64,000 nucleotides of DNA, from positions 32,001 through 96,000 of IMG/VR virus record IMGVR_UViG_3300004481_000271. The stretch is one strand, 5' to 3'. The stretch's first letter is position 1, and each line of letters starts with the position of its first letter. Shown here piece after piece: positions 38,658-53,049 of the stretch. The translations under genes and the position numbers were made by a program. The notes under the pieces were generated by a model. That model saw only the letters and a program-made list of their open reading frames with translations. It searched no databases and was not told where the DNA came from. Origin of the DNA: a virus.

Positions 38658-39590
38658 TCAGACCGCGCGGACCCCCGTCGCCTTCACGACCGCCGGCTCA
38701 TGCGCCCACTTGAAGTCGACGCGAGCGGTCACGACGATCATGTAGACGCCGGCCGAAATGTCGCGGTCGGTGTCGATCCGGATGTTCCGCCAGATCCCGA
38801 AGAGCATGTTCCCCGGGTCCGCCGCGAGGACGACCGTCTCGTTCGCGCCGACTCCGAGGTCGGTCGGGAAGACGGGAACGCCCATCACGGGGATCCCCTG
38901 GAACGGCCGGCTCTCGAGGGCCTGGACCTGCTCGTCGCCGAGCGGGGTCGCGCGGTCGCCGAGGCTCTCCTGATAGTCGATGTTCGCCTCGTCCGCGGAG
39001 AGGAAGCGGAGGCTTCGCTTGTCGCGGCGGAACTCAGAGGGCATCGTCTTCAGGATGTCCTTCAGGACGCTCCTCTGGAGGGTCGCCCCGCCCCCGAGGA
39101 CGACGTTCGTCGTCGCCTGGACGATGAAGCCGTTCAGGGTCTTCAGGAGGTCGTCCGTCGAGGTCGTGTCGCCGTTGAAGGCGAGGTCCTCGAGGTCGAG
39201 AGCGATCCGGTCCGCGAGGGTCTGGCGGATCGTCTGCTCGAAGTTGCCCCGCTCGATCGAGTCCTCGAGGGCCTCGAAGGAGACGTGGGTCTCCGCCTTC
39301 ACGAGCTGGGCGTCGAGCTCGATCTTCGAGGTGTCCGGCGCCGACCGCATGGCGAGCGGAAGCGCGGCGGCCTCCGTCCCCTTCCGGAGCGCGCGGGACC
39401 CATATCGGATCTTTTCCCGGAGCTCCTTCGGGCTGTTCATGTCGACCCTCGTCATCATGGGCATGACGACGGACTGGTCGATCGCGAGCTGGATGAACCG
39501 GTCGGCCTGTGCGGGCTCGAGGAGACCGCCAGGCGCCAGGTTCGCCAGCAAGAAGTCCGCCTTCCGAATGACGTCGCGGTTGTCCTGCAT
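38658..39590 (-). CDS. major capsid protein (HK97 fold)
   Basis: GGLLEPAQADRFI, EDSIERGNFEQTI, DLEDLAFNGD, GIWRNIRI. Confidence 0.95.
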   Translation of the reverse strand: MQDNRDVIRKADFLLANLAPGGLLEPAQADRFIQLAIDQSVVMPMMTRVDMNSPKELREKIRYGSRALRKGTEAAALPLAMRSAPDTSKIELDAQLVKAETHVSFEALEDSIERGNFEQTIRQTLADRIALDLEDLAFNGDTTSTDDLLKTLNGFIVQATTNVVLGGGATLQRSVLKDILKTMPSEFRRDKRSLRFLSADEANIDYQESLGDRATPLGDEQVQALESRPFQGIPVMGVPVFPTDLGVGANETVVLAADPGNMLFGIWRNIRIDTDRDISAGVYMIVVTARVDFKWAHEPAVVKATGVRAV

Positions 39591-39617: not shown

Positions 39618-41003
39618 TCAGAGGACCCAAGGCCCGCCGCGATGCGTGCGGTCGGCCCGCGTTCCGTTGCTTCTTCCGGTCGACTCGGTCCGACTCGCGG
39701 GAACTTGGGGCGTTCCCGCGATCTCCTCGACCTTCGAGGTGACCGCGTCGAGCTTCTTCATGATCCCGGCGAGGAGGTCGTCTCCCTCGCGGACGGGCTT
39801 GTCGTCGGGGCCGGAGCCGACGCTTCCCGGACCGCCGTCGGCGTTCGCCGGCGGGAGCGGTTCGGTCGCGGCGGCCCGCTTCTGGGCGTCCTCGGTCGAA
39901 GCGGCCGGAGCCTCCGCCTCTTCGATGATCGAGATCGCCCGACGGACGGCGTCGAGGACACGGGCGAGCTTGTCGGCTCCGCCCTTCTCGACGGTCGACT
40001 CGAGGGACTTCGAGAGCCCGACGATCTCGTCGCGGATTCGGACGAGCTCGGCGGGGTCGGGAGCGTTCGCGATCCGGGTCATCGCCTCGGCGAGGACCTT
40101 CAGCTTGTCGCTGGTCTCGGATCCGACCGCGGAGAGCTTCTCGTCCATCTCCTCGGCAGTGACCTCGACCGCCTCGCCCTCGGCCTTCTCCTCGACGGTC
40201 GGCTCCGCGGCCGGCGGGTCGGAGGCGGGAGCCTCGACGGTGGGAGCGGGAGCGGGGGTCTCGCCTCCGGCCGGAGCTCCGCCCTCGGCCTCCGGCTCCT
40301 CGGGGACGTCCGCCTTCGTCTCGGCGGTGGCCTCGAGGGCGGACGGCGCCGCTCCGGCGGTCGGCTGGGGATACTTCTCGGCGAGGGCGTTCAGCTTGGC
40401 GGCGAGCGCCCGGACTTGCGACAACGTCGCGGCGTCGAGCTCGTCGGACTCGGCGGCGGAGGCGGCGAGGGACATCGCGGTCTCGCCGACCTCCATCAAG
40501 CCCTGCGAGACCGGGCCGTCGGCCTTGTCGACCTTCTCGGCGGTCTTGCTCATGGGCGAAGGATACCGCGAAAGAGCTCCGCGCAACAGATCCGAGATCG
40601 CGGTGATCTCCTCCGCGAGCTCGACGGGGACCGGCTCGGCCGACGACTCGGACGTCTCGCCGGCTTCCTTCACCATGTTGGAGACGGAGACGAGCCGCTC
40701 GAGAGCCTCGGTCACGATCCGGAGGAGTCCCTCCTTCACCGGACCGGGGAGGTCGACCTTCACCACGGCGGAGACGTCCGCCGCGAGGGTTGTCTCGGCG
40801 ACATCGTTCGTCGCCGTCCTGGTCGGGTCCATGTTCCCTCCGCGTTGCTTGACGATGAGAAAGCGCCGACGGTTCGCGGCGCGGTCGACGAAGGAGACCT
40901 CCTCGACGAGGATGTCCCGAAGCCGAAACTTCGCTTCGTCGGGAGCTCGCCCCAGGAAGACGAGAGCGGCCTCGAGAGCTCGGTTGAACTTCGCGACGTC
41001 CAC
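39618..41003 (-). CDS. capsid scaffold protein with N-terminal protease-completing strand
   Basis: RLRDILVEEVSFVDRAANRRRFLIVK followed by an acidic Ala/Glu/Pro-rich helical body. GTG start inferred. A second ATG with RBS at 40832 could give a shorter form. Confidence 0.75.
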   Translation of the reverse strand: MDVAKFNRALEAALVFLGRAPDEAKFRLRDILVEEVSFVDRAANRRRFLIVKQRGGNMDPTRTATNDVAETTLAADVSAVVKVDLPGPVKEGLLRIVTEALERLVSVSNMVKEAGETSESSAEPVPVELAEEITAISDLLRGALSRYPSPMSKTAEKVDKADGPVSQGLMEVGETAMSLAASAAESDELDAATLSQVRALAAKLNALAEKYPQPTAGAAPSALEATAETKADVPEEPEAEGGAPAGGETPAPAPTVEAPASDPPAAEPTVEEKAEGEAVEVTAEEMDEKLSAVGSETSDKLKVLAEAMTRIANAPDPAELVRIRDEIVGLSKSLESTVEKGGADKLARVLDAVRRAISIIEEAEAPAASTEDAQKRAAATEPLPPANADGGPGSVGSGPDDKPVREGDDLLAGIMKKLDAVTSKVEEIAGTPQVPASRTESTGRSNGTRADRTHRGGPWVL

Positions 41004-41029: not shown

Positions 41030-44000
41030 TCAGGACGCCAGCGATTCCCGAAGGGCGGTCCCGCCCATGGAGTAGCCGGTGAAGGCGCCTCGCTTGATCG
41101 CCTCCCAAACGTCATCGTTCAGGACGCGGGTCCCGAGAAACCACGTCCCGACCGGAAAGGTCTCCTCGCCGTGGGTCTCGCGCACCTTCGCGAGGTAGGT
41201 CTCGAGCACGACAACACCATCGACCGCAGCCCCGTTGTGCATGACCTTGAAGGTGTCACCCCCGAAGTGTTCCATGTAGCTATGAGCCGCCTTCCGAACC
41301 TCGTCGGCGGAGTAGATGTCGCCCTGGGCGTCCGGTTCGTTGGGGACGAGGACGACGCCGAAGACGTAACGCTCCTCGGGCTCGGAGCCGTCCCGCTTCA
41401 AGAGGCGGACCGGCCGCTCCGCTCGGACGATCCGCTTCGACGTCTCGGTCCGCTCCTCGAGCTCGCCTGGCCGAAGAAGGAGACGGACGTCCTCCGGCTT
41501 CATCGGCGCCCCCTCGAGGAGGTCGATCGCCTGGGCGGGACCGAACCATCGAATCCGCTTCGGCGGCCCCTCCTCCCAGAGGAGCTCGAAGGTATGCACG
41601 AGGATCGTGTCCCCGACATCGGCGTCGAGCTTGCGGTTCCCGGTCCGACCGACGAGGACGTAGGGTCTTCCCTCGACCTCGACGACCTCCTTCCACTCCT
41701 CGATCTCGGAGCTCGAGATCGGCCCGACGGCACCGACGAAGTTGTAGACCTCCGGTGATCCCTCGACGGCGTTCCGCTCGGCGACGATCGCTCGGACTTC
41801 GCGGACGGCCTTGACCTTCGCCCAGAGGTCTTGCTCGCCCCCGAGGGAGTAGGTCGAAGCGAGTTGCTTCATCATCGCGCCCTCGGAGCCCGGCTCCTTC
41901 GTTGCCCAGGCGATCGCCCGGCGAAGCGCCGACCTCGTCTGCGCGATCCTCCTCGGGGCGAGGATGACTCGCGTCGCCCTCGAGATCTCCGAGTCGCGGA
42001 AGAACCGCTCGAGGGCCCGACGGCGTTCGCCCTGGGGCCGACCGGCGAGGGAGTCCCCGCCCGAGTAGAGGAGATCGAAGACGACGAAGCGGAGGTCCTC
42101 GTCGTCGACGGGCTTGTCGACGCGGAAGCGGGAGAGCTCGCGGCGCGGAAGGAAGGAACCCTCCTCGTCGACGGCCATGATCTCGCCGTCGAGGATGAAG
42201 CTCCCCCCGACCGCCTCGAGCTCGCCGGCGAGCCCGCGGAGGTTCGGCGCGATGTCCCGCTGGGTGTCTTCGGTGTAGACGAGGACCCCGCCCTCGCGGA
42301 CGTCCTCGTCGACGTTCGCTTCCCACTTCTCCGCGATCGCGCGGAAGCCGTTCAGCTTGGGCTCGACCTGGACGCCGGCCCGGACGAGTTGGTCAGTGAA
42401 GACCTGGCGAGCCGCTTCGTCCGGGTCGGTGAACTCGTTCGTCGCCCTGGGCGCCGGCTTCATCGGTTGGAAGAGCGCCGGCGGCCGAAGCTCGAGCCGC
42501 TCGCCCCCCTTGTCGTCTCCGTCCTCGACCTCCTTCGGATTCCAGACCTGGGTCCCGTCCTCCCGGACGCGGTGTCGCTTCGCGATCCCAGCCTCGGAGA
42601 GGGACCGCTCCGTCCCGGTCGGGAGCTCCTCGCCCTCGAGCTCGATCGTGTGCCAGTGGCGAACGTCCCGCCCGGGGACGGTCTGGACCGGGAGGCTCGT
42701 CTCGAGCTCGTCCCGGACGCGGTGTCGATGATCCCGACCGGCGGCCGGTTCGGTGAAGCCCTCGCCGAGGGTCTCGGGGAGGGCGTGGACGTGGCCGTCG
42801 CCTCGAGCCTTCTCCTCGGGAACCGCCCTTGCCGGCGTCCCGCCCGGCGAGAATTGCCAGAGGTCCGAGCCGGCTTCCTCGGCGACGAGGGAGAAGAGCC
42901 CCCGGAGCTTCTCGCCCCGGAAGCGGACCCGCTTGAACGTCCGACCGTCCTCGAGGAGCTCGGCCCGACCGCGGTCGACGAGCTCGACCGCCGAGGCGGT
43001 CGCCTTCGTCTCGTTCATCGGGACCCCGCCGACCTTCGCCCCAGGCGGGACGTCGCCCTCGAAGCCGAGGAGCTCCTTCCCGGCGTCGAGGAGGACGGCG
43101 CCGATGACCTCCTCGCCGGAGAGCGGGTCCTTCTGGAGCTGGAAGTCGTAGACCCCGCCCCCTGGCTTCTCGATCGCGAGGTGCCAGATCTGCCGGCTCG
43201 GCGCGGCCCGGATGACGGTCTGGCCCTTCCACCATTGCCAGGCGAGGGAGAAGTCGACGCGGGCGGCCTGTTTCTCGAGCTCGCCGAGCTCGCCCTCCTC
43301 CGGGTCGTAGGCTTCGACGAGGACCTTCCGCTCGACCCGTCGGAACTCGTTATTTTCGACGACGACGTTCTCCGAGGTGAAGATCCGCTCGGCGACGAGG
43401 GCGTCGCGGACCTCCCGGGCCTCCCGCTCGGAGTCGGCCTCCCAGAAGCGAAACTCCCGCGGCGTGGCTTCCATGAGAGACCGCGGCATCCCGGATTGAC
43501 CGAGCGGAGGCATGGACCGCGTTCGGACGGACCGGCGGTCGAGGACGGACGGGAGGACGTCCTTCGCGAAGCCGGTCGTCCAGAAGGTCTCGCTCGGCCC
43601 GTGGCCGGCGTCGTCGGGAGCGGGCGCGTCCCCTCCCTGGAGAAGCCGGAAGGTGAGCCGGCCGGCGAAGTCGGAGCCGGTGAGAAAGTATTCATGGGCG
43701 GCCGGCTTCTGAAGCCCCCATTCGACCTTCGGCCTTGCGACCTCGACGTAGACCCCCGGCTCGTTCCGCGTCGCCCCGACGTCCCCCGGCTCGACGACGG
43801 CGTCGCCGAGCTCGAGCCACTCGATCGGCTGCCTCGACTTCGGAGTCGCGAAGAGCCTCGCGGGAAGGATCATCGGCTTTGTGTAGCGGGAGCCTTCGAC
43901 GTTGAAGGCGGCGGCGATCTTCCGCCCATCGGCGACGGTCGAGACCTCGGGGACGGCGCCGGCCTTCTGAAGAGCGATCGTCCAGCCGACGAGGTAGTCC

Positions 44001-46084
44001 GGATCGACCTTCATCCGGAGGTCGGCGTGAAGCGTCCGGCCGCGGAAGTGAAACTGGAGAACAGCAAGGACCGGCCCCGGCTTCGCCGGCCAGTCGAGCA
44101 TCGGGTCGTCTTGCTTCGCGACGTCCGCCATCTCCTTCAAGGCGCGGTCCTCGTGGGGGACGAGAACGAGATCGTAGAGGGCGACGTGGTTCGTATAGGG
44201 CCCGCCGGCCGGTTCGTGGAGGAACTGGACCCGCCTCGAGAGCCGAGGCTCGAGGGCCCGCCCCAGGCGAAACTTGATCGCGTGAAGGGTCTCCTCGTCG
44301 AAGGGACCGCGGATCAGGATGTCGATGTCGTTCTCGCTCCGGCCAGCGGCGCAGATCGAGCCGACGAGGTAGACCGCCGGCATCCGGATCGACATCGGCT
44401 TCGAGAGCTGGGCGAGGACCTCCTCGAGCGCGGCGGGGTCGTCGGCGTTCGCGCGTTCCCCGCTCGGGTGAATCGGCGCCGTCTTCCCCTCCCCGTCGGG
44501 GAGGGCCTTCCCAAGGGCGGCGAGCTCGGACTCGGTGATCGGACGGCCCGGCCCCTCGAGCTCCTCGGTTCCGAATGTCTCGCCGGAAAGGAAGCGGACC
44601 GTCTCCTCGGCGAGAGCGTCGACCTCGACGGTCTGGACGCCTCGACGGCCGAGCTCGGCGAGGAGGAAGGCATGGGCGTTGATGACGTCCTCCCGCGTGA
44701 CCCCCTCGGCGCGGGTCACGTCGGACTCGGCGAAGGACCGCTCGAAGATCCGATGAAGTTGACGATCGAGCTCGACGAGCTCGGCCGGTGTCGCCCGCCG
44801 GAGCTCGTTCGGAGACGGGTCGGCGATGAAACCGTGAGCCCCCCGGCGGGCGGCCTGGCGGAGGACCTCGTCGATCGACATCTGTCGGGACTTCACGACG
44901 TCCCGGTCGAAGTCGACCGAACTCCCGAAGCGGCGCCCCAGCGGCGGGCGGCGGAGCTCGAGCGGCGGGTCGAAGATCACGACGACCTCGAGGGGGAGAT
45001 ACCAGAGCCCCGACTCGGTCGAGAACTCCCGGGCGGTGAAGTCGTCGAGGGACTCCTTCTGCTCGTCGGAGAGATCCGCCATGGTCTCGACCGCGACCGG
45101 ATCGGCCTGGGCGACGACCGCCCAGACGAGGGACTTCCCGACCCCCTGGGGGGCGACCTCGTTCACGAGGGCCTGGGGCTTGCCGATCCGCCCGACCCGG
45201 CGACGCCTCGAGAGGAGAGCGGCCGGCTTCCCATCGCGGAGCCGCTCGACGATGAACCCCGGATCGGGGACTTTCAAGGCGGGGAGAACCCCCTTCGGGG
45301 GCTCGGCTTGCCAGACGACGGCGGGAACGGCCCCGGAGAGCCGGCCGGCGAGAACGGCGACGGCGAGCTCCTCGACAGGTCCGCACTGGGCGATCGACGC
45401 GAGGGCGGGGTCGAGGTCGGCGAGCTTCGCGACGTCCTCGGCCCCGTCGAGGACGTAGGTCACGCGGGCGGCGACCGACCCCAGGGGAGGGCGAGCCGGC
45501 GGCGGAGCATTCGTCGCGAGCTCGGAAGCGGGCGGCGCCGGCGGGGTCTCCCGGAGGTCCGGCGACCCCATGGCTTCCCAGAGCTCCGCCCCGTCGAGGG
45601 AGCGGAGGACGAGCTCCCCGAGGGCGAGCTTGTGACCGTGGGCCCCGTCGAAGGCGGTCGACGTCGCGAGGAGCTCGTGAAGGTGATCGCCCCCCTCGTC
45701 GGTGATGAGCTCGACCCCCTCGCCGAGGACGAGGACGTGACGATGAACCGACCCGTCCCCGACGGCGACGTCGGCCCCGTTGCTCGTCTCGAGCCCGTGA
45801 GCGTGCGGCCCGTCCTCGGAGGTTGCCAGGACGGCGCCGGCCTCGAGGTGGACCTCGCCCCCTCCGTCTGGGTCGAAGATCGAGATCGGCGCGGGGAGGC
45901 GGAAGAGGTGCCGATGAAGCCCGTCGAGCTTCGTCGTCCCGGTCTCCCGCTCGAGGTTGTGAACGTGAACCCCGGCCTCGGCCGAGCCGGCGGGGAGCCC
46001 CTTCGCGAGCTCGGCGCGATTCCCCTCGAGGGTGTCGGCGGCCTTCGCCAGGGCGGCCTCGAGGCGGTCTTCGATCGTCATCAT
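41030..46084 (-). CDS. 1684-aa polyprotein: His-rich repeats, ASCH-like, nucleotidyltransferase, two LigD phosphoesterase-like domains, ATP-dependent ligase, XkdF-like prohead serine protease
   Basis: VYLVGS...NDIDILIR; QFH...LHADLR; DRG...FRGEKLRG; EPKLNGFR / ILDGEI / VFDLLY / EGAMMK / WAKVK; VFGVVLVP..DAQGD...MH...TGYSMGG. Confidence 0.88.
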   Translation of the reverse strand: MMTIEDRLEAALAKAADTLEGNRAELAKGLPAGSAEAGVHVHNLERETGTTKLDGLHRHLFRLPAPISIFDPDGGGEVHLEAGAVLATSEDGPHAHGLETSNGADVAVGDGSVHRHVLVLGEGVELITDEGGDHLHELLATSTAFDGAHGHKLALGELVLRSLDGAELWEAMGSPDLRETPPAPPASELATNAPPPARPPLGSVAARVTYVLDGAEDVAKLADLDPALASIAQCGPVEELAVAVLAGRLSGAVPAVVWQAEPPKGVLPALKVPDPGFIVERLRDGKPAALLSRRRRVGRIGKPQALVNEVAPQGVGKSLVWAVVAQADPVAVETMADLSDEQKESLDDFTAREFSTESGLWYLPLEVVVIFDPPLELRRPPLGRRFGSSVDFDRDVVKSRQMSIDEVLRQAARRGAHGFIADPSPNELRRATPAELVELDRQLHRIFERSFAESDVTRAEGVTREDVINAHAFLLAELGRRGVQTVEVDALAEETVRFLSGETFGTEELEGPGRPITESELAALGKALPDGEGKTAPIHPSGERANADDPAALEEVLAQLSKPMSIRMPAVYLVGSICAAGRSENDIDILIRGPFDEETLHAIKFRLGRALEPRLSRRVQFLHEPAGGPYTNHVALYDLVLVPHEDRALKEMADVAKQDDPMLDWPAKPGPVLAVLQFHFRGRTLHADLRMKVDPDYLVGWTIALQKAGAVPEVSTVADGRKIAAAFNVEGSRYTKPMILPARLFATPKSRQPIEWLELGDAVVEPGDVGATRNEPGVYVEVARPKVEWGLQKPAAHEYFLTGSDFAGRLTFRLLQGGDAPAPDDAGHGPSETFWTTGFAKDVLPSVLDRRSVRTRSMPPLGQSGMPRSLMEATPREFRFWEADSEREAREVRDALVAERIFTSENVVVENNEFRRVERKVLVEAYDPEEGELGELEKQAARVDFSLAWQWWKGQTVIRAAPSRQIWHLAIEKPGGGVYDFQLQKDPLSGEEVIGAVLLDAGKELLGFEGDVPPGAKVGGVPMNETKATASAVELVDRGRAELLEDGRTFKRVRFRGEKLRGLFSLVAEEAGSDLWQFSPGGTPARAVPEEKARGDGHVHALPETLGEGFTEPAAGRDHRHRVRDELETSLPVQTVPGRDVRHWHTIELEGEELPTGTERSLSEAGIAKRHRVREDGTQVWNPKEVEDGDDKGGERLELRPPALFQPMKPAPRATNEFTDPDEAARQVFTDQLVRAGVQVEPKLNGFRAIAEKWEANVDEDVREGGVLVYTEDTQRDIAPNLRGLAGELEAVGGSFILDGEIMAVDEEGSFLPRRELSRFRVDKPVDDEDLRFVVFDLLYSGGDSLAGRPQGERRRALERFFRDSEISRATRVILAPRRIAQTRSALRRAIAWATKEPGSEGAMMKQLASTYSLGGEQDLWAKVKAVREVRAIVAERNAVEGSPEVYNFVGAVGPISSSEIEEWKEVVEVEGRPYVLVGRTGNRKLDADVGDTILVHTFELLWEEGPPKRIRWFGPAQAIDLLEGAPMKPEDVRLLLRPGELEERTETSKRIVRAERPVRLLKRDGSEPEERYVFGVVLVPNEPDAQGDIYSADEVRKAAHSYMEHFGGDTFKVMHNGAAVDGVVVLETYLAKVRETHGEETFPVGTWFLGTRVLNDDVWEAIKRGAFTGYSMGGTALRESLAS

Positions 46085-46085
46085 G

Positions 46086-46418
46086 TCAGCCCTCCGCGGT
46101 CCAGCCTCGTTCGGCGGGCGGAGGTTCCCAGGACTCCCCGTCGAGCTCCGCGCGGACAGCCCTCGGAAGGAGGTCGAGGGCCTTCGTCGACGAGTAGCCC
46201 GCCTCGGTCCGAAGCCGGATGAACCAATCATAGGCGAGATCCGTCCGGCGTTTCACTTCGGCATCCGTCGGCGAGACCCCTCGGAGGAGCACGATCGCAG
46301 AACGGCGGCGGTCCTCCTCGAAGGTCTCGGCGACGACCCGGGTGATCCGGGTGACGATCTGCCGGACCCGCTCCGGGTCACCGTTCGCGAGCTCGCGGAG
46401 GACGTCGGTCTTCTCCAT
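46086..46418 (-). CDS. hypothetical protein
   Basis: RBS present, tightly packed between MuF and the polyprotein. Confidence 0.7.
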   Translation of the reverse strand: MEKTDVLRELANGDPERVRQIVTRITRVVAETFEEDRRRSAIVLLRGVSPTDAEVKRRTDLAYDWFIRLRTEAGYSSTKALDLLPRAVRAELDGESWEPPPAERGWTAEG

Positions 46419-46433: not shown

Positions 46434-47723
46434 TCAGACCGGGATCGTCGTGCATCGGCAAAGCCCGTGAGCGGGCGGGACCATGGTTCCGCCGGCCTCG
46501 CGAACGGACGTCAGCTCCCGGAAGGTGCCCCTCTCGTCGTTTCGTCCGGCGGCAGATTCGCGCACGACAGCGACCGGAGTCGTCGGCCCCTCTCCTCGAG
46601 GCGAGACGTAGATCGTCCCGCCGACCCGAAGACCCTCGGGCGACGTCGTCCCGCCGACGACCCGATACCACGGGAACTCGTTCACCCCGGCCTCTGGGTC
46701 CGGGTTCGCGGACGCTCGAGCGTAGCGGGCGAGCTGGGGCTCGACGGCGAAGACCTGGCCATGAAGGAACTGGCAGATCTGGCAAGTCCGGCCGTCGAGG
46801 AACGCCTCCCATTGGTAGTATTGGAAGCCCGCCTCGCGGTAGCCGGAGAGGGAGCCGAAGCTCCTCGACCGGGAGGTCGTCGCGGAGGCGACGACCCGGT
46901 AATACCACTCGGAGCGGCCGGAGACTCGGTCGCGGAGGGCGGCGGTCAAGTCGCGTCCGATGTCGACCCGCCCGAGCCCCTCGCGAACCCCGCTCGAAAT
47001 GATCGCCCGAGCGTCGCGGGACCACATGGCGCCCCGGTGTCGATATTCGTTCGTGACGAACGTCAGTCCGTCCCGACCGATCCGGCGGGCGATCGCCTCG
47101 GCGCCGGCGGAGAGGGTCCGCGAGACCCCTGGACCGCCGGCAACGAGGGAGGCGGCGCCGGTCGCCATGGCGGCGGCCTCGAGGGTTGCAGTCGCCTCGG
47201 CGACGTAGGCTGCATCGGACGGGATCTCGGCGACAAGCTCGGCGACCCCGTCGATCGCTTCGTTGAGCTCGGCGGCCGACATCGCCGGCCAAGGGCGCCG
47301 GCCGAGGGTTGCGAGAGCTTGTCGGACCGCCTCCCGCTCCGCCGGCGTCGCGACGGAAACAAGCCCTTGTTGGAGCTGCTCGACGGCAACGGCGAACCCC
47401 GTCCGCGTGAGAGGGTTCGGCGGCGCCTTCGCGACGGCGATCCGGTCGACGGCGATCGGCCAGAGCCAGGCGCCCGAGCGGGTCTGGATCACGCCTTGGA
47501 GGACGAAGGCGACCCCATCGCCGGCCTTGGCGAGCTCGCGAGCTCGCTTCTCGACCGCCTCGGCGGAGAGCTCGCGGACGAGCTCGCCCAGGTAGGGCGA
47601 GAAGGCGGCAAGGGCGAGGTGAGACGCGCACCCCAGGGGACCGGGAGGGTCGGCGAAGAGGACGTCCCTCGAGCTCGCCACCGTCCGCCACGGCGGACCG
47701 TAGACGGCGAGCTCCTCGGTCAC
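46434..47723 (-). CDS. MuF / phage minor head protein
   Basis: YQWEAFLDGRTCQICQFLHG...PPAHGLCRCTTIPV. GTG start inferred. Confidence 0.88.
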   Translation of the reverse strand: MTEELAVYGPPWRTVASSRDVLFADPPGPLGCASHLALAAFSPYLGELVRELSAEAVEKRARELAKAGDGVAFVLQGVIQTRSGAWLWPIAVDRIAVAKAPPNPLTRTGFAVAVEQLQQGLVSVATPAEREAVRQALATLGRRPWPAMSAAELNEAIDGVAELVAEIPSDAAYVAEATATLEAAAMATGAASLVAGGPGVSRTLSAGAEAIARRIGRDGLTFVTNEYRHRGAMWSRDARAIISSGVREGLGRVDIGRDLTAALRDRVSGRSEWYYRVVASATTSRSRSFGSLSGYREAGFQYYQWEAFLDGRTCQICQFLHGQVFAVEPQLARYARASANPDPEAGVNEFPWYRVVGGTTSPEGLRVGGTIYVSPRGEGPTTPVAVVRESAAGRNDERGTFRELTSVREAGGTMVPPAHGLCRCTTIPV

Positions 47724-48175
47724 CGTGCCCGCTCCCCGGCCCACTTCCCGCCGGTCGTCCGGACGATCGCAACGTCCGCGCCGGCAAGGGCGAGGGCGGT
47801 CACGCGAAAGGCGACGTCGTGTCCCTCGGTCGCGACCTCGTAGATCGCCCCGGAGCCGAGAGCCCCTGTCGAGGCGAGCTCCCGCCACTTCCGGCCCCCG
47901 GCGTTGTTCGGATAGGGCGTCGCGACGAGCGGGGTGATCGTGACCGTCCCGCCAGCGTGCGGCGCCCCCGCCGTCGTCTCGAAGTCGACGACGAGCCGAA
48001 CCGTGTCCCATTCCCTCGCGTCGAGCGTGACGTCGTCGGCGACGACCCCGGCGGTGATCTCGCCGGCGGAGAGGTTGTCCGGTGTCCAGGCGGCGGCGTC
48101 TTGGATTCCGAGATCATCGCGGACGACGACCGTCGCGTCCTGGGAGTAGAGCCTTCGCTTCGTCGGGCCTGTCAT
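47720..48175 (-). CDS. hypothetical virion protein
   Basis: Coupled to portal and MuF, beta-rich. Confidence 0.7.
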   Translation of the reverse strand: MTGPTKRRLYSQDATVVVRDDLGIQDAAAWTPDNLSAGEITAGVVADDVTLDAREWDTVRLVVDFETTAGAPHAGGTVTITPLVATPYPNNAGGRKWRELASTGALGSGAIYEVATEGHDVAFRVTALALAGADVAIVRTTGGKWAGERAR

Positions 48176-50077
48176 CTATTCCTCCTCGAGGAGGTCCGCC
48201 CCGTGAAGCCCCGCCGCTTCGTCGAGGGCGGCCCGTGCCGCTCGAGCGGCGGCGTCGGGGACCTCTCCCGCGGCCTCCTCGAGGGCGTTGTTACGGGCGG
48301 CCTGGGCGGCGCCAGCGGCGGAGAGGGAGCGGAGCTCTTCCTCGACCCCTGGACGCCAGTCGGTCCCCTTGTCGGAGCTCGAGCTCGCCCCCTTCGTCTC
48401 GTCCTCCGGAGGGCGGAAGCCGGCGAGCGTGAGCTGGATCGGTTGCTTCGCCCAGGGGACGTCGAGGGAGTCGAGGTCCATCCCGATCACGTCGGAGGAG
48501 AGCTCTCTCGCTTCGTTCGGGGTCACGACCCCGACCTTTGCCAGGTCGACGATGATCGCGGCGACCTTCTCCGGGTCCCTCGTCGAGGGCCCAAGGCTCC
48601 GGTAGGTCCAGAGGGTGATCCCGAGAGCGGGGAGGATCGTCCGGTTGAACCAAGCATCGAACTCCCGCCGCTCCGGCTCGAAGATCTGCTCGTCGGCGAA
48701 GCGAAGGGAAGCGTCGGCAGTCGCCCGGTTGAAGTCGCGGACGTCCCCGCGAAGAAGTCGCGGCAGGCGAAAGGAGCTCCCGATCTTGTCGATGTTCCGC
48801 TCGTCGTAGGCTTGGAAGAGGGCGTCCCCTTGCTGGACGTCGACGAGCTTCTCGAACTTGAGAGTCGGAATCTCCCTCGGTGACAGCGGGTCAGCGTCCG
48901 CGTCGTCGGCCTCGATCACGAGGATCGAATGGAAGTTGCCGCGCCCCTTGATGTTGTCGCGGAGGTAGGTCTGGATCTGGTCGACCGAATCGGAGGAGAG
49001 CCTCCCGCCGGAGACGAGAAGGGCGAGCGGAGGAACCGCCTTGTTGTCGAAGTAGGTGTAATTGACCTCGTCGGCAGCCCTCGAGCCGAGGACGGAGAGG
49101 AGATTCCCGATCCATCGCGGGACCCCGTAAGCCTCCCCCGTCCGATGGATCCGAAAGTGAACGAGCTCCGTCGCCGGAGCTTCATCGTTCCGGCCAAGGG
49201 TTGCAGCCTTGAAGGCGGCGAGGGTCGGATAGACCTCTCCGGTCTTCTGGGAAACGACTCTGGGGTCGCCGAACTCCTTGAACCAAACGAGCTTCCGCCC
49301 GACGGCCTGGACGTAGCGGCGGAAGAAGCGAGGTTGACGAACGACCTCGAAGCCGAGCCCGACCTGGACCTTCTCCTCGACGAGGACCGGCTCCTCGTCG
49401 ATCGGTGTGCAACGGACGTGCGTCGGTGGAACGACAACGAAGCGGGCGAGCCGGCCGGCCCGATCGCGAAGGACCTCCCAGTAGGCGTTGCCGCAGATCT
49501 CCCGGTCCTGGCGGGTCTGTCGCTTCAAGGTGTCGAAGGACCCCGTCGGGGAGACCGCGTCGAGGAAGGCAGAGAGCTTCGCCTTCTCGATCCGTTGGAG
49601 GCTCTTCAGTTGCTCGAGCTTCTTCTCGACCTCCTCGTCCGACGGCATGAGGGCGAGTGGGTCGAGGGCGAGCTCGCCCTCCGCCGGCGGAGCCCCCTCT
49701 TCCCCAAGACGGGAAGTCGCGTCGGCGAGCCTCGCCTCGGCGCGACGGAACCGCTCGACCCAGATCGCATCGCGGACCTTCTCGAAGGAGTCGTCGGCGT
49801 TCAGGTCGATTCGGGGAGCGAACCGGTAGCCGAGCCCGTCGATGTTCGTAACGTAGGCGGCGACGTTCTGGTTTAGAGCGGAGCTGTTCTCCCAGAGTCG
49901 GAAGAGCGTCCCGGGGTCGTAGCTCGGCTCGACGACCCCGGAGCCGCTGAAGAGCGCCCCGAGTTGCTCGTCCTCGGTGCCCTGGATCGATCGCGGGATG
50001 ACGAGGTCGGAACCGAGGACCTCGGCTTTCAACGTGCGCCGGCGTCCGCTCCTCTTCGTCTCGCGATCGTCCGCCAT
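48176..50077 (-). CDS. portal protein (PBSX-like)
   Basis: CGNAYWEVLRD, ELVHFR, YGVPRW, YFDNKAVP, FRLPRLLRG, DFNRATA, TPNEAR. Confidence 0.95.
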   Translation of the reverse strand: MADDRETKRSGRRRTLKAEVLGSDLVIPRSIQGTEDEQLGALFSGSGVVEPSYDPGTLFRLWENSSALNQNVAAYVTNIDGLGYRFAPRIDLNADDSFEKVRDAIWVERFRRAEARLADATSRLGEEGAPPAEGELALDPLALMPSDEEVEKKLEQLKSLQRIEKAKLSAFLDAVSPTGSFDTLKRQTRQDREICGNAYWEVLRDRAGRLARFVVVPPTHVRCTPIDEEPVLVEEKVQVGLGFEVVRQPRFFRRYVQAVGRKLVWFKEFGDPRVVSQKTGEVYPTLAAFKAATLGRNDEAPATELVHFRIHRTGEAYGVPRWIGNLLSVLGSRAADEVNYTYFDNKAVPPLALLVSGGRLSSDSVDQIQTYLRDNIKGRGNFHSILVIEADDADADPLSPREIPTLKFEKLVDVQQGDALFQAYDERNIDKIGSSFRLPRLLRGDVRDFNRATADASLRFADEQIFEPERREFDAWFNRTILPALGITLWTYRSLGPSTRDPEKVAAIIVDLAKVGVVTPNEARELSSDVIGMDLDSLDVPWAKQPIQLTLAGFRPPEDETKGASSSSDKGTDWRPGVEEELRSLSAAGAAQAARNNALEEAAGEVPDAAARAARAALDEAAGLHGADLLEEE

Positions 50078-50116: not shown

Positions 50117-50797
50117 CTACCGCGGGAGATAGAGCTCGCGGAGCTCGGCCCGGTCCGAGTCGGTGAGGCGGCCGGCGGGGAGCTCGCTCTCCTCGGCAGA
50201 GAGCGTCCGCCGGTTCATCAGCGAGCCCGTCCAGTCGTCGTGGGCAAGCCCGGCGGCGTGACCGAGCTCGTGAAGGAGAACGCGGAAGAGCGTCGCGTCG
50301 TCGGGGACGTTCCGGACGACAACCGTCGCGGCAGTCGCCCGGCCGTCCCCTCGAAGCCGATGTCGGCACTCCCCGGGAGGGTCGCCGAGCTCGGCGGCGG
50401 CCCCAAGAACGAGGGAGACGTCGACGACCCCTTCGCGCCCCCGGTCGAGGGTGAAGAGCTCGAAGCCGACCTGGGAGTTGAAGTCGGCGACGGCGGCCTC
50501 GACGACTCGAAGCTCCTCGGCCGGCGGCGTCCCGTTCTCGCCCTCTCCATGAAAGACCCGGACGGCGAGCGGGACAGCCTCCCGCGGCCAGCGGAGCTCG
50601 AGAGCGTCCGCACAAGTCGCCGGCTCCTCGCCCTCGAGGTCGTCGACGTAGACCGCCCGGTCGCCGATCCGGCAGATCCGCAGGAGCCCCGGCTCGTCGT
50701 GCGTCGTGACCCCGTAGACGATGAGAACCGCGGCGGCGACCCCGATCGTCAGGAAGACGACAACCCCGACGACCCATCCGACCCAGCGGCGTTGCAT
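50117..50797 (-). CDS. membrane-anchored matrixin-like (M10) zinc metalloprotease
   Basis: N-terminal TM helix, HELGHAAGLAH, Met-turn SLMN, LTDSD...LY. Confidence 0.85.
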   Translation of the reverse strand: MQRRWVGWVVGVVVFLTIGVAAAVLIVYGVTTHDEPGLLRICRIGDRAVYVDDLEGEEPATCADALELRWPREAVPLAVRVFHGEGENGTPPAEELRVVEAAVADFNSQVGFELFTLDRGREGVVDVSLVLGAAAELGDPPGECRHRLRGDGRATAATVVVRNVPDDATLFRVLLHELGHAAGLAHDDWTGSLMNRRTLSAEESELPAGRLTDSDRAELRELYLPR

Positions 50798-51135
50798 GAT
50801 TCGCCCTCCTCCTCCTCGCAAGACTGCCCAGCGAGAGCGGCAGCCCTCGCCTTCGCGGCGATCTTCGCGAGCTCCTCGGGACCCCCGACCGCGTCGGCGA
50901 GCTTCGCGAGCTTCGCTTGAAGCTCGGCGTTCGCCTTCTCGGCGGCGTCGGCGAGCCCCTGGGCAAAGCGGATCGCCTGGGCGGGGTTCAAGACAACGTG
51001 GTCGAGCATCCGTCCGAAGCGGACGGCGACTTGACCCGGAGCGGTCCCGATGTTGATGTCGATCGACCGCGACGGCGCCGACGGCGCAGCCTTCCCGTTC
51101 CGCGGCCGCTTCCCTGGCTTCCTTGGCTTCTTCAC
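50749..51135 (-). CDS. hypothetical protein
   Basis: GTG start inferred, coupled to neighbours. Confidence 0.55.
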   Translation of the reverse strand: MKKPRKPGKRPRNGKAAPSAPSRSIDINIGTAPGQVAVRFGRMLDHVVLNPAQAIRFAQGLADAAEKANAELQAKLAKLADAVGGPEELAKIAAKARAAALAGQSCEEEEGESCNAAGSDGSSGLSSS

Positions 51136-51413
51136 CCCGAGCTCCTTCCCCTTGGAACCTCTTCGAGCGTCGGCTCGTCGCCTCGACCGGCGGTCTCTTC
51201 CTCCTCCTCGACGACGACCTCCGGCTCCGGCCGGACGTAGCGGGCTCGGACGGCGGCCTCGCACCGGTCGGAGCACGCATCGAACCGCCCCCAGCCGAGA
51301 ACCTCGACGAACCGCCAGGGCGGCGGAAGGACGACGACCCTCTCCGGACGATCGACCGGGATCGCCCTGGGGCAGGCGTCGCAAACGATCCGAGATTCCG
51401 TCCGGTCGACCAT
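51132..51413 (-). CDS. small Cys-containing protein
   Basis: CDAC...ACSDRC. Confidence 0.6.
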   Translation of the reverse strand: MVDRTESRIVCDACPRAIPVDRPERVVVLPPPWRFVEVLGWGRFDACSDRCEAAVRARYVRPEPEVVVEEEEETAGRGDEPTLEEVPRGRSSG

Positions 51414-51447
51414 GGCGCCTCGAGTCTACTCTCCGACCGCGGTCGAT

Positions 51448-53049
51448 CTAAACCCCGATGATCTTCGCGCCCCCTCGCCCCGAGCTCCGACGAGCTCTTC
51501 GGTCTCGACGGGCGGAGTAGAGGCGGGCGGCCTCCCGGGCGATCCACGACGCCATGAGGCGGTCGCCCGTATGTGTCCCGGGGTCGTAGGACACCATCTC
51601 AGCGATCCATTCCCCGACCTGGGAACCGACGGCGCGAGTCCCCGCCTCGCACGGGATCGCCCACTTCCCGACGGCGAGCTCGGCGGCGAGAGACTCGACC
51701 CCATACTCGGCAGAGAGCTTGTTTCGTCCGGTCGTGAAGGAACGGACGCGGAGACCCGGAGCCCGTTCCCGGACCCACTGAAGGAGGAAGTCCTGGGCGG
51801 CGTTGTTCTCGACGATGACGATCGATCGGAACCGCTCGTGAACGGAGACGACCCGGTCGATGATCTCGGGCCCGGCCCATCGGCCGGCCTGGACCTCGAG
51901 GACCTGGCGAACCTCGTCCGGCCGGACGAGGATCGTGAAGAGGGCGGTCAGGTCGGCCGACTCCTTCCTCGAGACGGCGAGGTCGACTCCGGTCACAACG
52001 AGAACCCCCTCGGGGAGCCCGCCGAGGCGGGCGACGGCGTCGGTGAAGTTGAGCTCCTCGGCGAGCTCGGGGAGCTTCTCGGGGATCTCCTCGAGGCTCC
52101 GGATCGTCGGGAGCCCCTCACCGTTCGCGAGGCACGTCTCGATCCACTCCCGCTTGAACCGTGCGGACTCCTCGTCGCGGGGTTGGCATAGCATCTGGCG
52201 AGCGAACTCGATCGGTCCGAGGATCTCGTTCCGCGTTCGCTCGATCCGCTCGAGGTTCCATCGCTCCGGCCAGAGCGGGACACCGTCGGCGTTGACGACG
52301 GGATACCGCTTCGCCCACCACCCCGACCGCTCGAGAGAATGCGCCATGTCGTCCGGGTGCCAGGCGTTCGATAGGAAGACGACCCAAGCGCCCTCGGCGA
52401 GCCGCGGGAAGGCGGAGGCGCGGATCCATTCCTCCGTCTTCTCCCGCTGGTACTTCGTCCGGGTGTTGATCTCCGTCAAGACGTCGTCGATCACGAGCCC
52501 GTCAAGGCGGGCGCCTTGGATCGTTCCGCCCTCCGGAGAGTAGGCTTGAACCGACGGGTCCTTGATTCCGTGCGGCCGCTCGATCTCGATCGCGTTGTCC
52601 GTCCAGAGGGTCCCCTTCCTGAGTCCGGGGAAGACGTCTCGGACGACCCGGTTCTCGATGATGTGCCCCTGGATCGCTCGGATGATCTTCTTCGCCTGCC
52701 CCTGAGTCGCGGAAAGGATCGCGTATCGACGCCGGACGTCCTGGCCAAGAAGCCAGAGGATGCGGACGATCGCGAGCTGTTGGGTCTTCCCCGACTCCGG
52801 GAACGTCCAGATCACCGCGAGGAGGTTCTCCTCGATCGTGTCGTGCCATTCGACTTGGAAATCTTGAACCTCGATCGGGTGTCCGGTCTCCTCTTCGCGA
52901 AGGACGAGCTCGCAGAACGTCGGGCAGTCGTGACGCGCGAGCTCGACGAGGGACGCATAGGCGAGCCTCGCGGTGTCAACGAGCGGACTCGCCTCGACCC
53001 GCCGATGGAGGAACCGAAGATCCGCCGTCTTATCTCCGGAGAAGGTCAT
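51448..53049 (-). CDS. terL: terminase large subunit
   Basis: PESGKT (Walker A), LVIDD (Walker B), WHPDD, LWPERW, GVDLA, VENNAAQ, HTGDRLMA. Confidence 0.95.
   Translation of the reverse strand: MTFSGDKTADLRFLHRRVEASPLVDTARLAYASLVELARHDCPTFCELVLREEETGHPIEVQDFQVEWHDTIEENLLAVIWTFPESGKTQQLAIVRILWLLGQDVRRRYAILSATQGQAKKIIRAIQGHIIENRVVRDVFPGLRKGTLWTDNAIEIERPHGIKDPSVQAYSPEGGTIQGARLDGLVIDDVLTEINTRTKYQREKTEEWIRASAFPRLAEGAWVVFLSNAWHPDDMAHSLERSGWWAKRYPVVNADGVPLWPERWNLERIERTRNEILGPIEFARQMLCQPRDEESARFKREWIETCLANGEGLPTIRSLEEIPEKLPELAEELNFTDAVARLGGLPEGVLVVTGVDLAVSRKESADLTALFTILVRPDEVRQVLEVQAGRWAGPEIIDRVVSVHERFRSIVIVENNAAQDFLLQWVRERAPGLRVRSFTTGRNKLSAEYGVESLAAELAVGKWAIPCEAGTRAVGSQVGEWIAEMVSYDPGTHTGDRLMASWIAREAARLYSARRDRRARRSSGRGGAKIIGV

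Follow-up and report, generated by a model that had tools for sequence, protein, structure and literature searches.

The gene at positions 41030-46084 of the window, by which we mean the whole stretch of 64,000 nucleotides of viral DNA analysed here, raises the question of whether a protein carrying several DNA-repair enzymes on one chain is cut into its modules by the protease at its own C-terminus, and after which residues. It encodes a "polyvalent" cargo-protease polyprotein, in which the DNA-repair enzymes stand ahead of a capsid-maturation protease. A leader helix opens the chain at the N-terminus; it is followed by a first His-rich module, a domain resembling ASCH, a helical module and a small nucleotidyltransferase, then by a pair of LigD-phosphoesterase-like domains, a further His-rich insert and the ATP-dependent DNA ligase. 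The C-terminus is formed by an XkdF-type prohead serine protease (assemblin fold). The gene call (P0002) starts with MMTIEDR and matches Pfam PF01068 (ligase) and PF14550 (XkdF protease). The following features were located; a slash marks a candidate cut.

41030-46084, minus strand: cargo-protease polyprotein gene (ORF listing and translation); 1,684 aa if M50 of the long ORF is taken as the start; stop codon at 41030-41032.
45998-46084, minus strand: N-terminal leader helix ending LAK/G (K77), a putative targeting peptide with a candidate site at its end; LAKA (K63) falls within the helix.
45587-45979, minus strand: His-x-His repeat module 1, residues 85-215 (translation); only part of the homologues have it.
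44891-45289, minus strand: ASCH/PUA-like domain, residues 315-447, whose last residues are VVK (K447).
44174-44479, minus strand: small Pol-beta-type nucleotidyltransferase module, residues 585-686, with a GS...DIDIL motif in the translation.
43331-44110, minus strand: LigD 3'-phosphoesterase-like domain 1 (PE1), residues 708-967; Foldseek matches 3p43, 3p4h, 3n9d and 3n9b, E 1e-5 to 3e-4.
42812-43270, minus strand: second PE-like domain (PE2), residues 988-1140; AlphaFold strands, pLDDT 85-93.
42587-42808, minus strand: His-x-His module 2, residues 1142-1215, an insert between EEK/A and IAK/R; pLDDT low to medium.
41438-42577, minus strand: ATP-dependent DNA ligase module, residues 1219-1598; PF01068 at 1285-1474, E 5e-20; phrog_114.
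41033-41395, minus strand: XkdF-type prohead serine protease domain, with its His in VMHNG and its Ser in GYSMGG; the ORF ends 9 residues past the Ser.

The ASCH-like domain is modelled by AlphaFold with a pLDDT of about 90 (model residues 20-152, followed by a disordered stretch), and Foldseek matches it to ASCH-like structures. The ANMV-1 enzyme is homologous at its N-terminus to the nucleotidyltransferase module, and its C-terminal half aligns with PE2. The predicted enzymes include the LigD-type pair, a 3'-phosphoesterase fold (Foldseek 3p43, 3n9b and related entries) and an ATP-dependent ligase (PF01068). His-x-His module 2 is missing in about half of the homologues. The gene lies in a head block with portal, MuF, scaffold and capsid genes. 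This nearby capsid-gene context, the several unrelated enzymatic domains and the C-terminal assemblin-like peptidase are the features by which polyvalent proteins are defined in the available part of their description in 2017 (Iyer, Burroughs, Anand, de Souza, Aravind; PMC5512222). There, too, the proteins are large multi-enzyme phage proteins in a virion-gene block, and C-terminal assemblin-like peptidases were predicted to process them; that part of the article gives no cleavage motif, does not mention XkdF and uses "ligase" only in unrelated senses. The LigD-like repair kit and the two-gene split protease described below are likewise not found in it, and the [VIL]-x-K code comes from the present analysis. 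A megablast search against phage records gave no match, PDB sequence searches with the protease and with PE1 returned nothing useful, and separate cargo genes were sought in the close relatives L023, L027, L028 and L031, where there are none and the gene order is identical.

The original prediction had invoked HK97-type prohead proteases. An HK97-type (S78) assignment was not borne out: residues 1617-1727 match PF14550 (Peptidase_S78_2) with 94.8 bits against a cut-off of 24 (E 5e-27), and no PF04586 (S78) match was obtained at E<=0.01. All 54 smaller relatives also match PF14550, and the catalytic His (VMHNG) and Ser (GxSxGG) are invariant among them. The fold was compared with a model of the relative L083, a natural protease-scaffold fusion, rather than of the window protein. 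This model aligned with T4 gp21 (5jbl_A) at Z 10.7 over 127 residues (rmsd 3.1), with the VZV protease (1vzv_A) at Z 8.2 and with 8j3s_A at Z 6.4, the next unrelated rows having Z <=4.7. As modelled, the protease is of the T4 gp21/herpes assemblin fold. Past the stop codon of its ORF, strands of the form EVSxVD...FLIVK sit on the next gene.

39618-41003, minus strand: scaffold gene; long form from a possible GTG at 41003, with a nested ATG at 40832 behind GGAGGG (ORF and start scan).
40848-40928, minus strand: scaffold N-terminal element FRLRDILVEEVSFVDRAANRRRFLIVK/Q; predicted last two strands of the protease fold, ending in [VIL]-x-K.

The N-terminal element of the scaffold is conserved in about 135 loci. 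In the L083 fusion, the scaffold-derived strand has a pLDDT of 84-95 and is included in the alignments with gp21 and the VZV protease. The protease fold was not found complete on one polypeptide; its last strands appear, from the model, to be encoded by the scaffold gene. We also considered whether a programmed -1 frameshift joins the polyprotein to the scaffold, and rejected this. The window scaffold is in the -1 frame, but the relatives vary: relative to the protease, the gene of the strands is in frame 0, 1 or 2 among them. In frame 0, 1-6 stops intervene; other relatives are at +1 or -1, and one has the two fused in frame. Because of this variation, a conserved recoding signal is unlikely.

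The polyprotein was further proposed to process itself at recurring hydrophobic-x-K motifs. All ten motifs listed for it are present at the expected positions.

46051-46040, minus strand: LAKA (K63), inside the leader helix.
46009-45998, minus strand: LAKG (K77), leader end.
45433-45422, minus strand: VAKL.
44899-44888, minus strand: VVKS (K447), end of the ASCH-like domain.
44504-44515, minus strand: LGK/A (K575), within a 40-residue disordered linker ahead of the nucleotidyltransferase.
44111-44122, minus strand: VAK/Q (K706), at the end of linker 687-707, directly ahead of DDPxLDWP of PE1.
43268-43279, minus strand: LEK/Q (K987), 6-7 residues ahead of the first PE2 strand.
42806-42817, minus strand: EEK/A (K1141), past the GRA[VI]P end of PE2.
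42575-42586, minus strand: IAK/R (K1218), 7 residues ahead of DGTQVW, the start of the ligase module.
41393-41404, minus strand: LLK/R (K1612), 6 residues ahead of EERYVFG of the protease.

In the AlphaFold model of residues 296-1240, linkers with pLDDT<50 extend over 448-463, 551-590, 687-707, 968-981, 1141-1148 and 1199-1222. K447, K575, K706, K987, K1141 and K1218 lie in or beside these low-confidence linkers, which match the module breakpoints revealed by BLAST among 21 homologues; it is for these six that the proposed position just before a domain could be upheld. LAKA was rejected as a cleavage site, since K63 is within the leader helix and poorly conserved (Lys in only 4/14 of the aligned close family); K77 is Lys in 3/7. 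In 24 methylase-first relatives, the first cargo domain has a similar leader ahead of it (M-x-DR-x-x-A-A-x-x-A-R-x-V-L...[VIL]-x-K). Three motif matches fall inside folded domains, and conserved Lys are also found within domains.

So loose a three-residue motif might have been picked by eye from 59 lysines by chance. The polyprotein holds 19 [VIL].K where 12.5 would be expected (z 2.1), and 11 [VIL].K[QATSRG] where 5.0 would be (z 2.9), the Arg control reaching a similar z of 2.5. Objectively defined linkers, which make up 24% of the residues, hold 4/7 motifs (p=0.066, not significant); they showed no enrichment in Lys as such (11/35 Lys, p 0.22), and several of the listed motifs are unconserved. 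The excess of the motif over chance in the polyprotein sequence alone is only weak. However, in the conserved columns of the family, Lys accounts for 4/17 in linkers versus 8/221 in domains (p=0.006). The excess is also specific to head genes, with 2.06x in those of the window versus 1.13x in 42 other genes, and to Lys, with 1.90x versus 1.00x for Arg in 90 non-redundant relatives. Together with the family-wide retention of Lys rather than Arg in a 69% GC genome, including 37/37 methylase cassettes, these counts make chance a quite improbable and already disfavoured explanation. The homologues do not count as independent samples.

Among the 90 non-redundant cargo-protease proteins, Lys is kept and almost never replaced by Arg ahead of PE2, the ligase, the Dam methylase cassettes and the protease, and after the ASCH-like domain. 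The relatives carry one to three Dam methylases as cargo, and the Lys ahead of them, which lies upstream of the start of the Pfam PF02086 model, is present in all 37 cassettes. The Lys at the end of the ASCH-like domain (K447) is conserved in 18/19 relatives with V/L/I always at P3. K575 is Lys in 7/11, many relatives carrying instead a Lys 2-5 residues ahead of APIHPSG. The Lys ahead of PE1 (K706) is found in 21/21 and 26/27 relatives, and that ahead of PE2 (K987) in 25/26, with V/L/I at P3 in 76% and A or Q at P1'; methylase cassettes are inserted just upstream of the latter in five homologues. At K1141, P3 is non-hydrophobic and 8/12 relatives have Lys at +3; in relatives that lack the His-rich insert, the equivalent of K1141 and the pre-ligase Lys are one single residue. 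The pre-ligase Lys (K1218) is kept in 18/19 and 24/26 relatives among variable adjoining residues, some of these sites having no hydrophobic P3. Ahead of the protease, [LIV][LIV]K (K1612) occurs in 82/82 anchored relatives, and its LIK equivalent in the L083 model is coil with a pLDDT of about 60. Across the junction classes, P3 is V/L/I in 46-100% of cases. The signal consists of [V/L/I]-x-K and then a residue that is small or polar (A, T, Q, G, S, R), and stands ahead of modules or, for the ASCH module, behind it; it travels with inserted cassettes, and its Lys is constant while the neighbours vary.

The same motif was traced in the other head proteins.

39555-39590, minus strand: capsid N-terminus MQDNRDVIRK/AD (K10), a 10-residue N-terminal peptide.
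47424-47435, minus strand: MuF VAK/A (K195); the whole MuF ORF has just three Lys.
50024-50035, minus strand: portal N-terminal TLK/A (K17), 41/41 relatives, no Arg.

The capsid protein starts with MQDNRDVIRKAD, as predicted, and K10 is conserved in 61/61 relatives, with no Arg, within the consensus M-x-[DEN]-N-R-x-[ILV]-[ILV]-[QE]-K-A-D; the N-terminus of a Lactococcus relative reads ELLQK/Q. All motifs listed for the scaffold (VDKA, LSKS, VEKG) and MuF (LAKA, VAKA) exist, not all of them conserved. In the scaffold, K168 (VDK/A), K424 and the Lys of FLIVK are each kept in 8/8 and that of LSK/S in 6/7, VEK/G in only 2/7; the variable acidic body of the protein begins right behind the FLIVK Lys. 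In MuF, K195 is found in 14/14 (P3 V or L in 13/14) and LAKA in 3/14. As a P3-x-P1 motif, [VIL]-x-K is conserved across six classes of junction as well as in the capsid, scaffold, MuF and portal proteins. Such a pattern is what a prohead-protease cleavage code should produce and, judged from these alignments, [VIL]-x-K is probably where the protease cuts. The proposal of self-processing stands in part, in that the motif marks module borders and that Lys, not Arg, is conserved at independent junction types as well as in the four head proteins.

The junction Lys could also owe their conservation to something other than proteolysis, for example domain capping, contacts with DNA or phosphate, or the docking of strands. 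The repair core would then be one multidomain enzyme that loses no more than the leader or the protease. The archaeal virus ANMV-1 has nucleotidyltransferase, ligase and both PE domains as one 866-aa protein without a protease, and this unfused enzyme reads SLK-LDADP at the place equivalent to K706, with the Lys ahead of the DxDP of PE1; for this reason K706 may be intrinsic to the PE domain. K1612, too, may be part of the protease enzyme, because [LIV][LIV]K also precedes the domain in a stand-alone Lactococcus XkdF protease, and MuF K195 sits between conserved blocks with no obvious linker. Separation of the modules is not obviously useful, since LigD-type enzymes work as fusions, and the repair core may stay joined, given the single ANMV-1 enzyme and the working fusion that is bacterial LigD. 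PMC5512222 adds that the N4 virion RNA polymerase is packaged unprocessed. Against this account, the same three residues adjoin six or more unrelated kinds of module, on one side or the other, and turn up in four further head proteins; the motif travels with inserted cassettes, lies outside the Pfam methylase model and keeps its Lys among variable neighbours. We consider a non-proteolytic role of the Lys a minority possibility, though a substantial one.

A further possibility is that the protease processes the polyprotein and the head proteins with a different or partly overlapping specificity, the Lys motifs not being scissile. Literature searches on XkdF/PF14550 specificity, prohead proteases with lysine, the PhiCh1 capsid and HFTV1 gave no relevant cleavage data, and neither a specificity nor a cleavage product for any XkdF-type protease. 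Among related proteases of the assemblin fold, cleavage follows Glu or Ala (PMC10052503), and the linkers are rich in E and A, so that alternative motifs are available. However, the variable linkers hold no other conserved residue, their conserved columns being either Lys or part of the adjoining domains, which makes another specificity unlikely.

Cutting by a split, assemblin-type protease at [VIL]-x-K sites in the procapsid, which would free the modules and trim the head proteins, remains the best explanation, and we give it a probability of about one half. The protease domain, predicted to be incomplete on its own chain, would bind the N-terminal beta-strands of the scaffold (EVSFVD...FLIVK), and this contact would both load the polyprotein into the procapsid and render the active site complete. 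The completed protease would then cut after the Lys of exposed [VIL]-x-K sites, thereby removing the leader, freeing the cargo modules and the protease, trimming the capsid N-terminus and dismantling the scaffold. Speculatively, the freed enzymes might leave with the DNA; that each enzyme is released as a small ejectable protein, as the original prediction had it, is conceivable at most. We propose only tentatively the strictest form of the scheme, in which the cargo-borne assemblin protease would be active solely once the scaffold strands complete its fold, so that one contact loads the cargo and switches on a Lys-specific [VIL]-x-K code that unzips the polyprotein, trims capsid, MuF and portal and detaches the scaffold, readable in more than 100 Myxococcota-associated phages and prophages.

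Known prohead systems offer several parallels. The prohead protease of T4 recognizes L/I-x-E, and HK97 gp4 (S78) cuts gp5 at K103/S104, in F-N-K/S with a hydrophobic P3. The candidate cut after Lys with a hydrophobic P3 resembles that of HK97; however, here there is no PF04586 match, and the capsid, which has a separate scaffold, lacks a delta domain and carries only the 10-residue N-terminal peptide. With T4 gp21, phiKZ gp175 and SPN3US gp245, the protease would share the assemblin fold, a P3-x-P1 code with charged P1, and N-terminal propeptides that target cargo to the prohead and are then cut off. In contrast to these systems, P1 would be Lys and not Glu, the Pfam family is PF14550 and not S77, and the cargo modules and the protease follow one another on a single chain, where those systems use separate tagged proteins. 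The hydrophobic-P3/charged-P1 layout of [VIL]-x-K parallels the A-x-E code measured for SPN3US gp245 (PMC10052503). As in the Dar system of phage P1 and the N4 virion RNA polymerase, enzymes acting on or protecting the incoming DNA would be loaded into the head, although targeting and proteases differ; DdrB of the Dar system is proteolytically processed according to PMC5512222, whereas the N4 polymerase is not. Lambda C/Nu3 and the Lactococcus-type XkdF protease-scaffold fusions share the linkage of protease and scaffold and a nested scaffold start (ATG 40832 here). In gp33 of Lactococcus phage 28201, the EVS strand, protease and scaffold are on one chain, whereas here a second gene, lying downstream of that for the protease, carries the strand together with the scaffold.

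Should the [VIL]-x-K code prove real, it could make the mature virion proteome, including the enzymes that travel with the DNA, readable from sequence across a large clade of high-GC phages and myxobacterial prophages, nearly all of it uncultured, and the widespread family of XkdF-type proteases would gain a testable substrate rule. The split protease, if true, would couple the activation of a protease to assembly in a novel manner. The cargo, a LigD-like end-healing and sealing kit here and Dam methylases in the relatives, suggests that the capsid delivers enzymes which protect or repair the incoming genome, a point that bears on the biology of phage defence.

The window (GC about 69%) carries on its minus strand a phage head module in the following order.

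48176-50077 (-), portal
46434-48011 (-), MuF
41030-46231 (-), giant ORF, between MuF and scaffold
39618-41003/41108 (-), scaffold, between giant ORF and capsid
38658-39590 (-), major capsid protein

Gene calling puts the start of the giant ORF at M50 (46084), which gives a polyprotein of 1,684 amino acids (59 Lys, 156 Arg). Pfam matched the ORF only twice, as an ATP-dependent ligase (residues 1285-1474) and an XkdF-type protease (PF14550, 1617-1727), and its stop lies 9 residues past the Ser of GYSMGG. Two modules of G-x-H-x-H repeats, at 45587-45979 (-) and 42587-42808 (-), contain the copies GVHVHNL, LHRHLF, GPHAHGL, VHRHVL, DHLHEL, GHVHAL, DHRHRV and RHWHTI; they had no family match and may be metal binders. 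The ORF adjoining the portal, 50117-51547 (-), which the crude gene calling left out, has a zincin-like HExxH region at its end, where residues 415-473 match Pfam Matrixin (E 9e-7). Its product could be a second virion protein bearing a metallopeptidase.

The original prediction placed hydrophobic-x-Lys motifs at the domain junctions of the polyprotein, and all ten that it listed were found at their positions. AlphaFold modeling of residues 296-1240 from a 21-sequence alignment (mean pLDDT 74) gave well-folded blocks with stretches of pLDDT below 50 between them, at 448-463, 551-590, 687-707, 968-981, 1141-1148 and 1199-1222. K575, K706, K1141 and K1218 lie inside these linkers, K987 lies at a linker edge, and K447 is the final residue of the ASCH-like domain. 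Foldseek recognized folds of the LigD 3′-phosphoesterase (PE) and ASCH-like types. A homologous-protein search returned 21 relatives; BLAST breakpoints in the 21 homologues, of shuffled architecture, fell at 447-449, 469, 565-583, 680, 963-987, 1138-1149, 1215-1225 and 1593-1597, coinciding with the model linkers. Because linkers and breakpoints agree, the location at domain junctions is borne out.

In the single sequence alone, the motif barely exceeds chance: [VIL].K was observed 19 times versus 12.5 expected, and [VIL].K[QATSRG] 11 times versus 5.0 (z 2.9), the Arg control in the same protein giving z 2.5. Four of seven copies lie in objectively defined linkers, which make up 24% of residues (p 0.066), and the linkers of the polyprotein show no Lys enrichment. 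The comparison of head with non-head genes, proposed as a control, was positive, with a 2.06-fold excess (z 3.7) in the head genes of the window and 1.13-fold in its 42 other genes. A related-locus search of IMG/VR and GTDB genomes (the latter mostly Myxococcota MAGs plus Myxococcus, Corallococcus and Archangium) found 160 loci, reduced to 90 non-redundant cargo-protease proteins. Across these 90, [VIL].K[QATSRG] was 1.90-fold over shuffles and its Arg version 1.00, the z-scores for this set being inflated because the sequences are related. Conserved columns were Lys in 4/17 cases in linkers versus 8/221 in domains (p 0.006).

Lysine at module junctions among relatives, counts anchored on each module's first conserved residues
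End of ASCH-like domain: Lys 18/19; P3 V/L/I 100%
Before PE1: Lys 26/27
Before PE2: Lys 25/26; P3 V/L/I 76%; P1′ A or Q
Seven residues upstream of ligase DGxQVW: Lys 24/26
Immediately before IWGSPAGKK, Dam methylase cassettes: Lys 37/37; P3 V/I/L 100%; P1′ mostly T
Before protease: Lys 82/82

The methylase-junction Lys lies upstream of the PF02086 model start. Inserted cassettes carry their own motif copy. Where a relative lacks the second His-rich insert, K1141 and K1218 merge into a single site. Lactococcus phage 28201 gp33, a stand-alone protein, also has [LIV][LIV]K ahead of the protease, so this Lys may be part of the enzyme. In nearly all relatives (loci L023-L160) the protease is C-terminal on proteins of 400-1,100 amino acids; cargo in 54 scanned relatives comprised one to three Dam-type methylase cassettes (33), ligase (2) and a biotin-carboxylase-like domain (1).

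The leader, 45998-46084 (-), has the conserved amphipathic N-terminus M-x-DR-x-x-A-A-x-x-A-R-x-V-L, common to cargo-protease proteins with very different first cargo domains, and is a candidate capsid-targeting peptide. K63 (LAKA), inside this leader helix, is unconserved and was discarded as a site. K77 (LAK/G, the slash marking the proposed cut) is the counterpart of the leader-end [VIL]-x-K in 24 methylase-first relatives.

Among the similar motifs claimed for scaffold and MuF, scaffold VDK/A (8/8) and LSK/S (6/7) and MuF VAK/A are conserved; scaffold VEKG and MuF LAKA are not. The observation as a whole is confirmed in part. The MuF site, K195 at 47424-47435 (-), is kept in 14/14 and was not ranked in the original prediction; MuF contains three Lys. 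Portal K17 (TLK/A), 50024-50035 (-), kept in 41/41, had been neither listed nor ranked. All 61 relatives keep capsid K10, with the consensus M-x-[DEN]-N-R-x-[ILV]-[ILV]-[QE]-K-A-D, and the capsid N-terminus of a Lactococcus relative reads ELLQK/Q. Scaffold FLIVK is invariant and conservation ends right after it.

The enzymes could also stay joined, as in LigD, ANMV-1 or N4 vRNAP. The archaeal ANMV-1 virus (KP703175; L162:3200-5800) encodes NTase, ligase and two PE-like domains as one 866-amino-acid protein, the same set in a different order and without the protease; its gene adjoins a MutT-like gene, with a terminase nearby. Since this enzyme has a Lys matching K706 (SLK-LDADP) without a protease, K706 may be a domain residue.

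HK97-type proteases had been cited as the precedent; the Pfam match of this protease is PF14550, so by profile it falls outside the HK97/S78 family. The protease ORF stops 13-47 residues beyond GxSxGG in every relative but two: the frame of L054 is open over 123 residues and that of L083 over 323. The next gene begins HRLxDMxVEEVSLVDRAANKxRFLIVK. A conserved frameshift from protease to scaffold is disfavoured because the scaffold frame varies (0, +1 or -1) across relatives. The EVS...FLIVK element stands at the protease's own N-terminus in phrog_3017 and Lactococcus gp33, an arrangement in Lactococcus-type XkdF proteins that looks like a permutation. L083, a MAG locus (L083:7893-8639), has an in-frame fusion of protease and scaffold. 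The fusion was modeled with AlphaFold from a 105-row alignment (pLDDT 78.5; EVS strand 84-95); the model matched T4 gp21 over its range 31-211 (Z 10.7) and, over 39-224, the proteases of VZV (Z 8.2) and HCMV (Z 6.4). By these matches, which extend through the EVS strand, the XkdF domain is, as modeled, of assemblin fold; the closing protease strands appear to come from the scaffold N-terminus in this clade, and the fold seems to be split over two genes.

41033-41395 (-), polyprotein part, with His and Ser
40848-40928 (-), scaffold part; its EVSFVD...FLIVK strands make the assemblin fold complete in the model of the natural L083 fusion
40832 (-), nested scaffold start, an ATG after GGAGGGAAC, 5 codons beyond FLIVK, with GGAGGG as Shine-Dalgarno

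The upstream part of the scaffold, with the EVS strand, has only GTG start candidates, such as that at 41003, 27 nt past the polyprotein stop. A Met 5-8 residues past FLIVK is kept in many relatives.

The best reading of [VIL]-x-K is a putative Lys-specific cleavage code. Assemblin-like peptidases at the C-terminus of polyvalent proteins, probably processing them, were described by Iyer et al. 2017 (PMC5512222). Self-processing of the polyprotein is supported in part, and ejection of the freed enzymes is speculation. The completed protease would use the Lys code inside the procapsid, in a layout analogous to the A-x-E code that was measured for SPN3US gp245 (PMC10052503) and to propeptide processing in T4.
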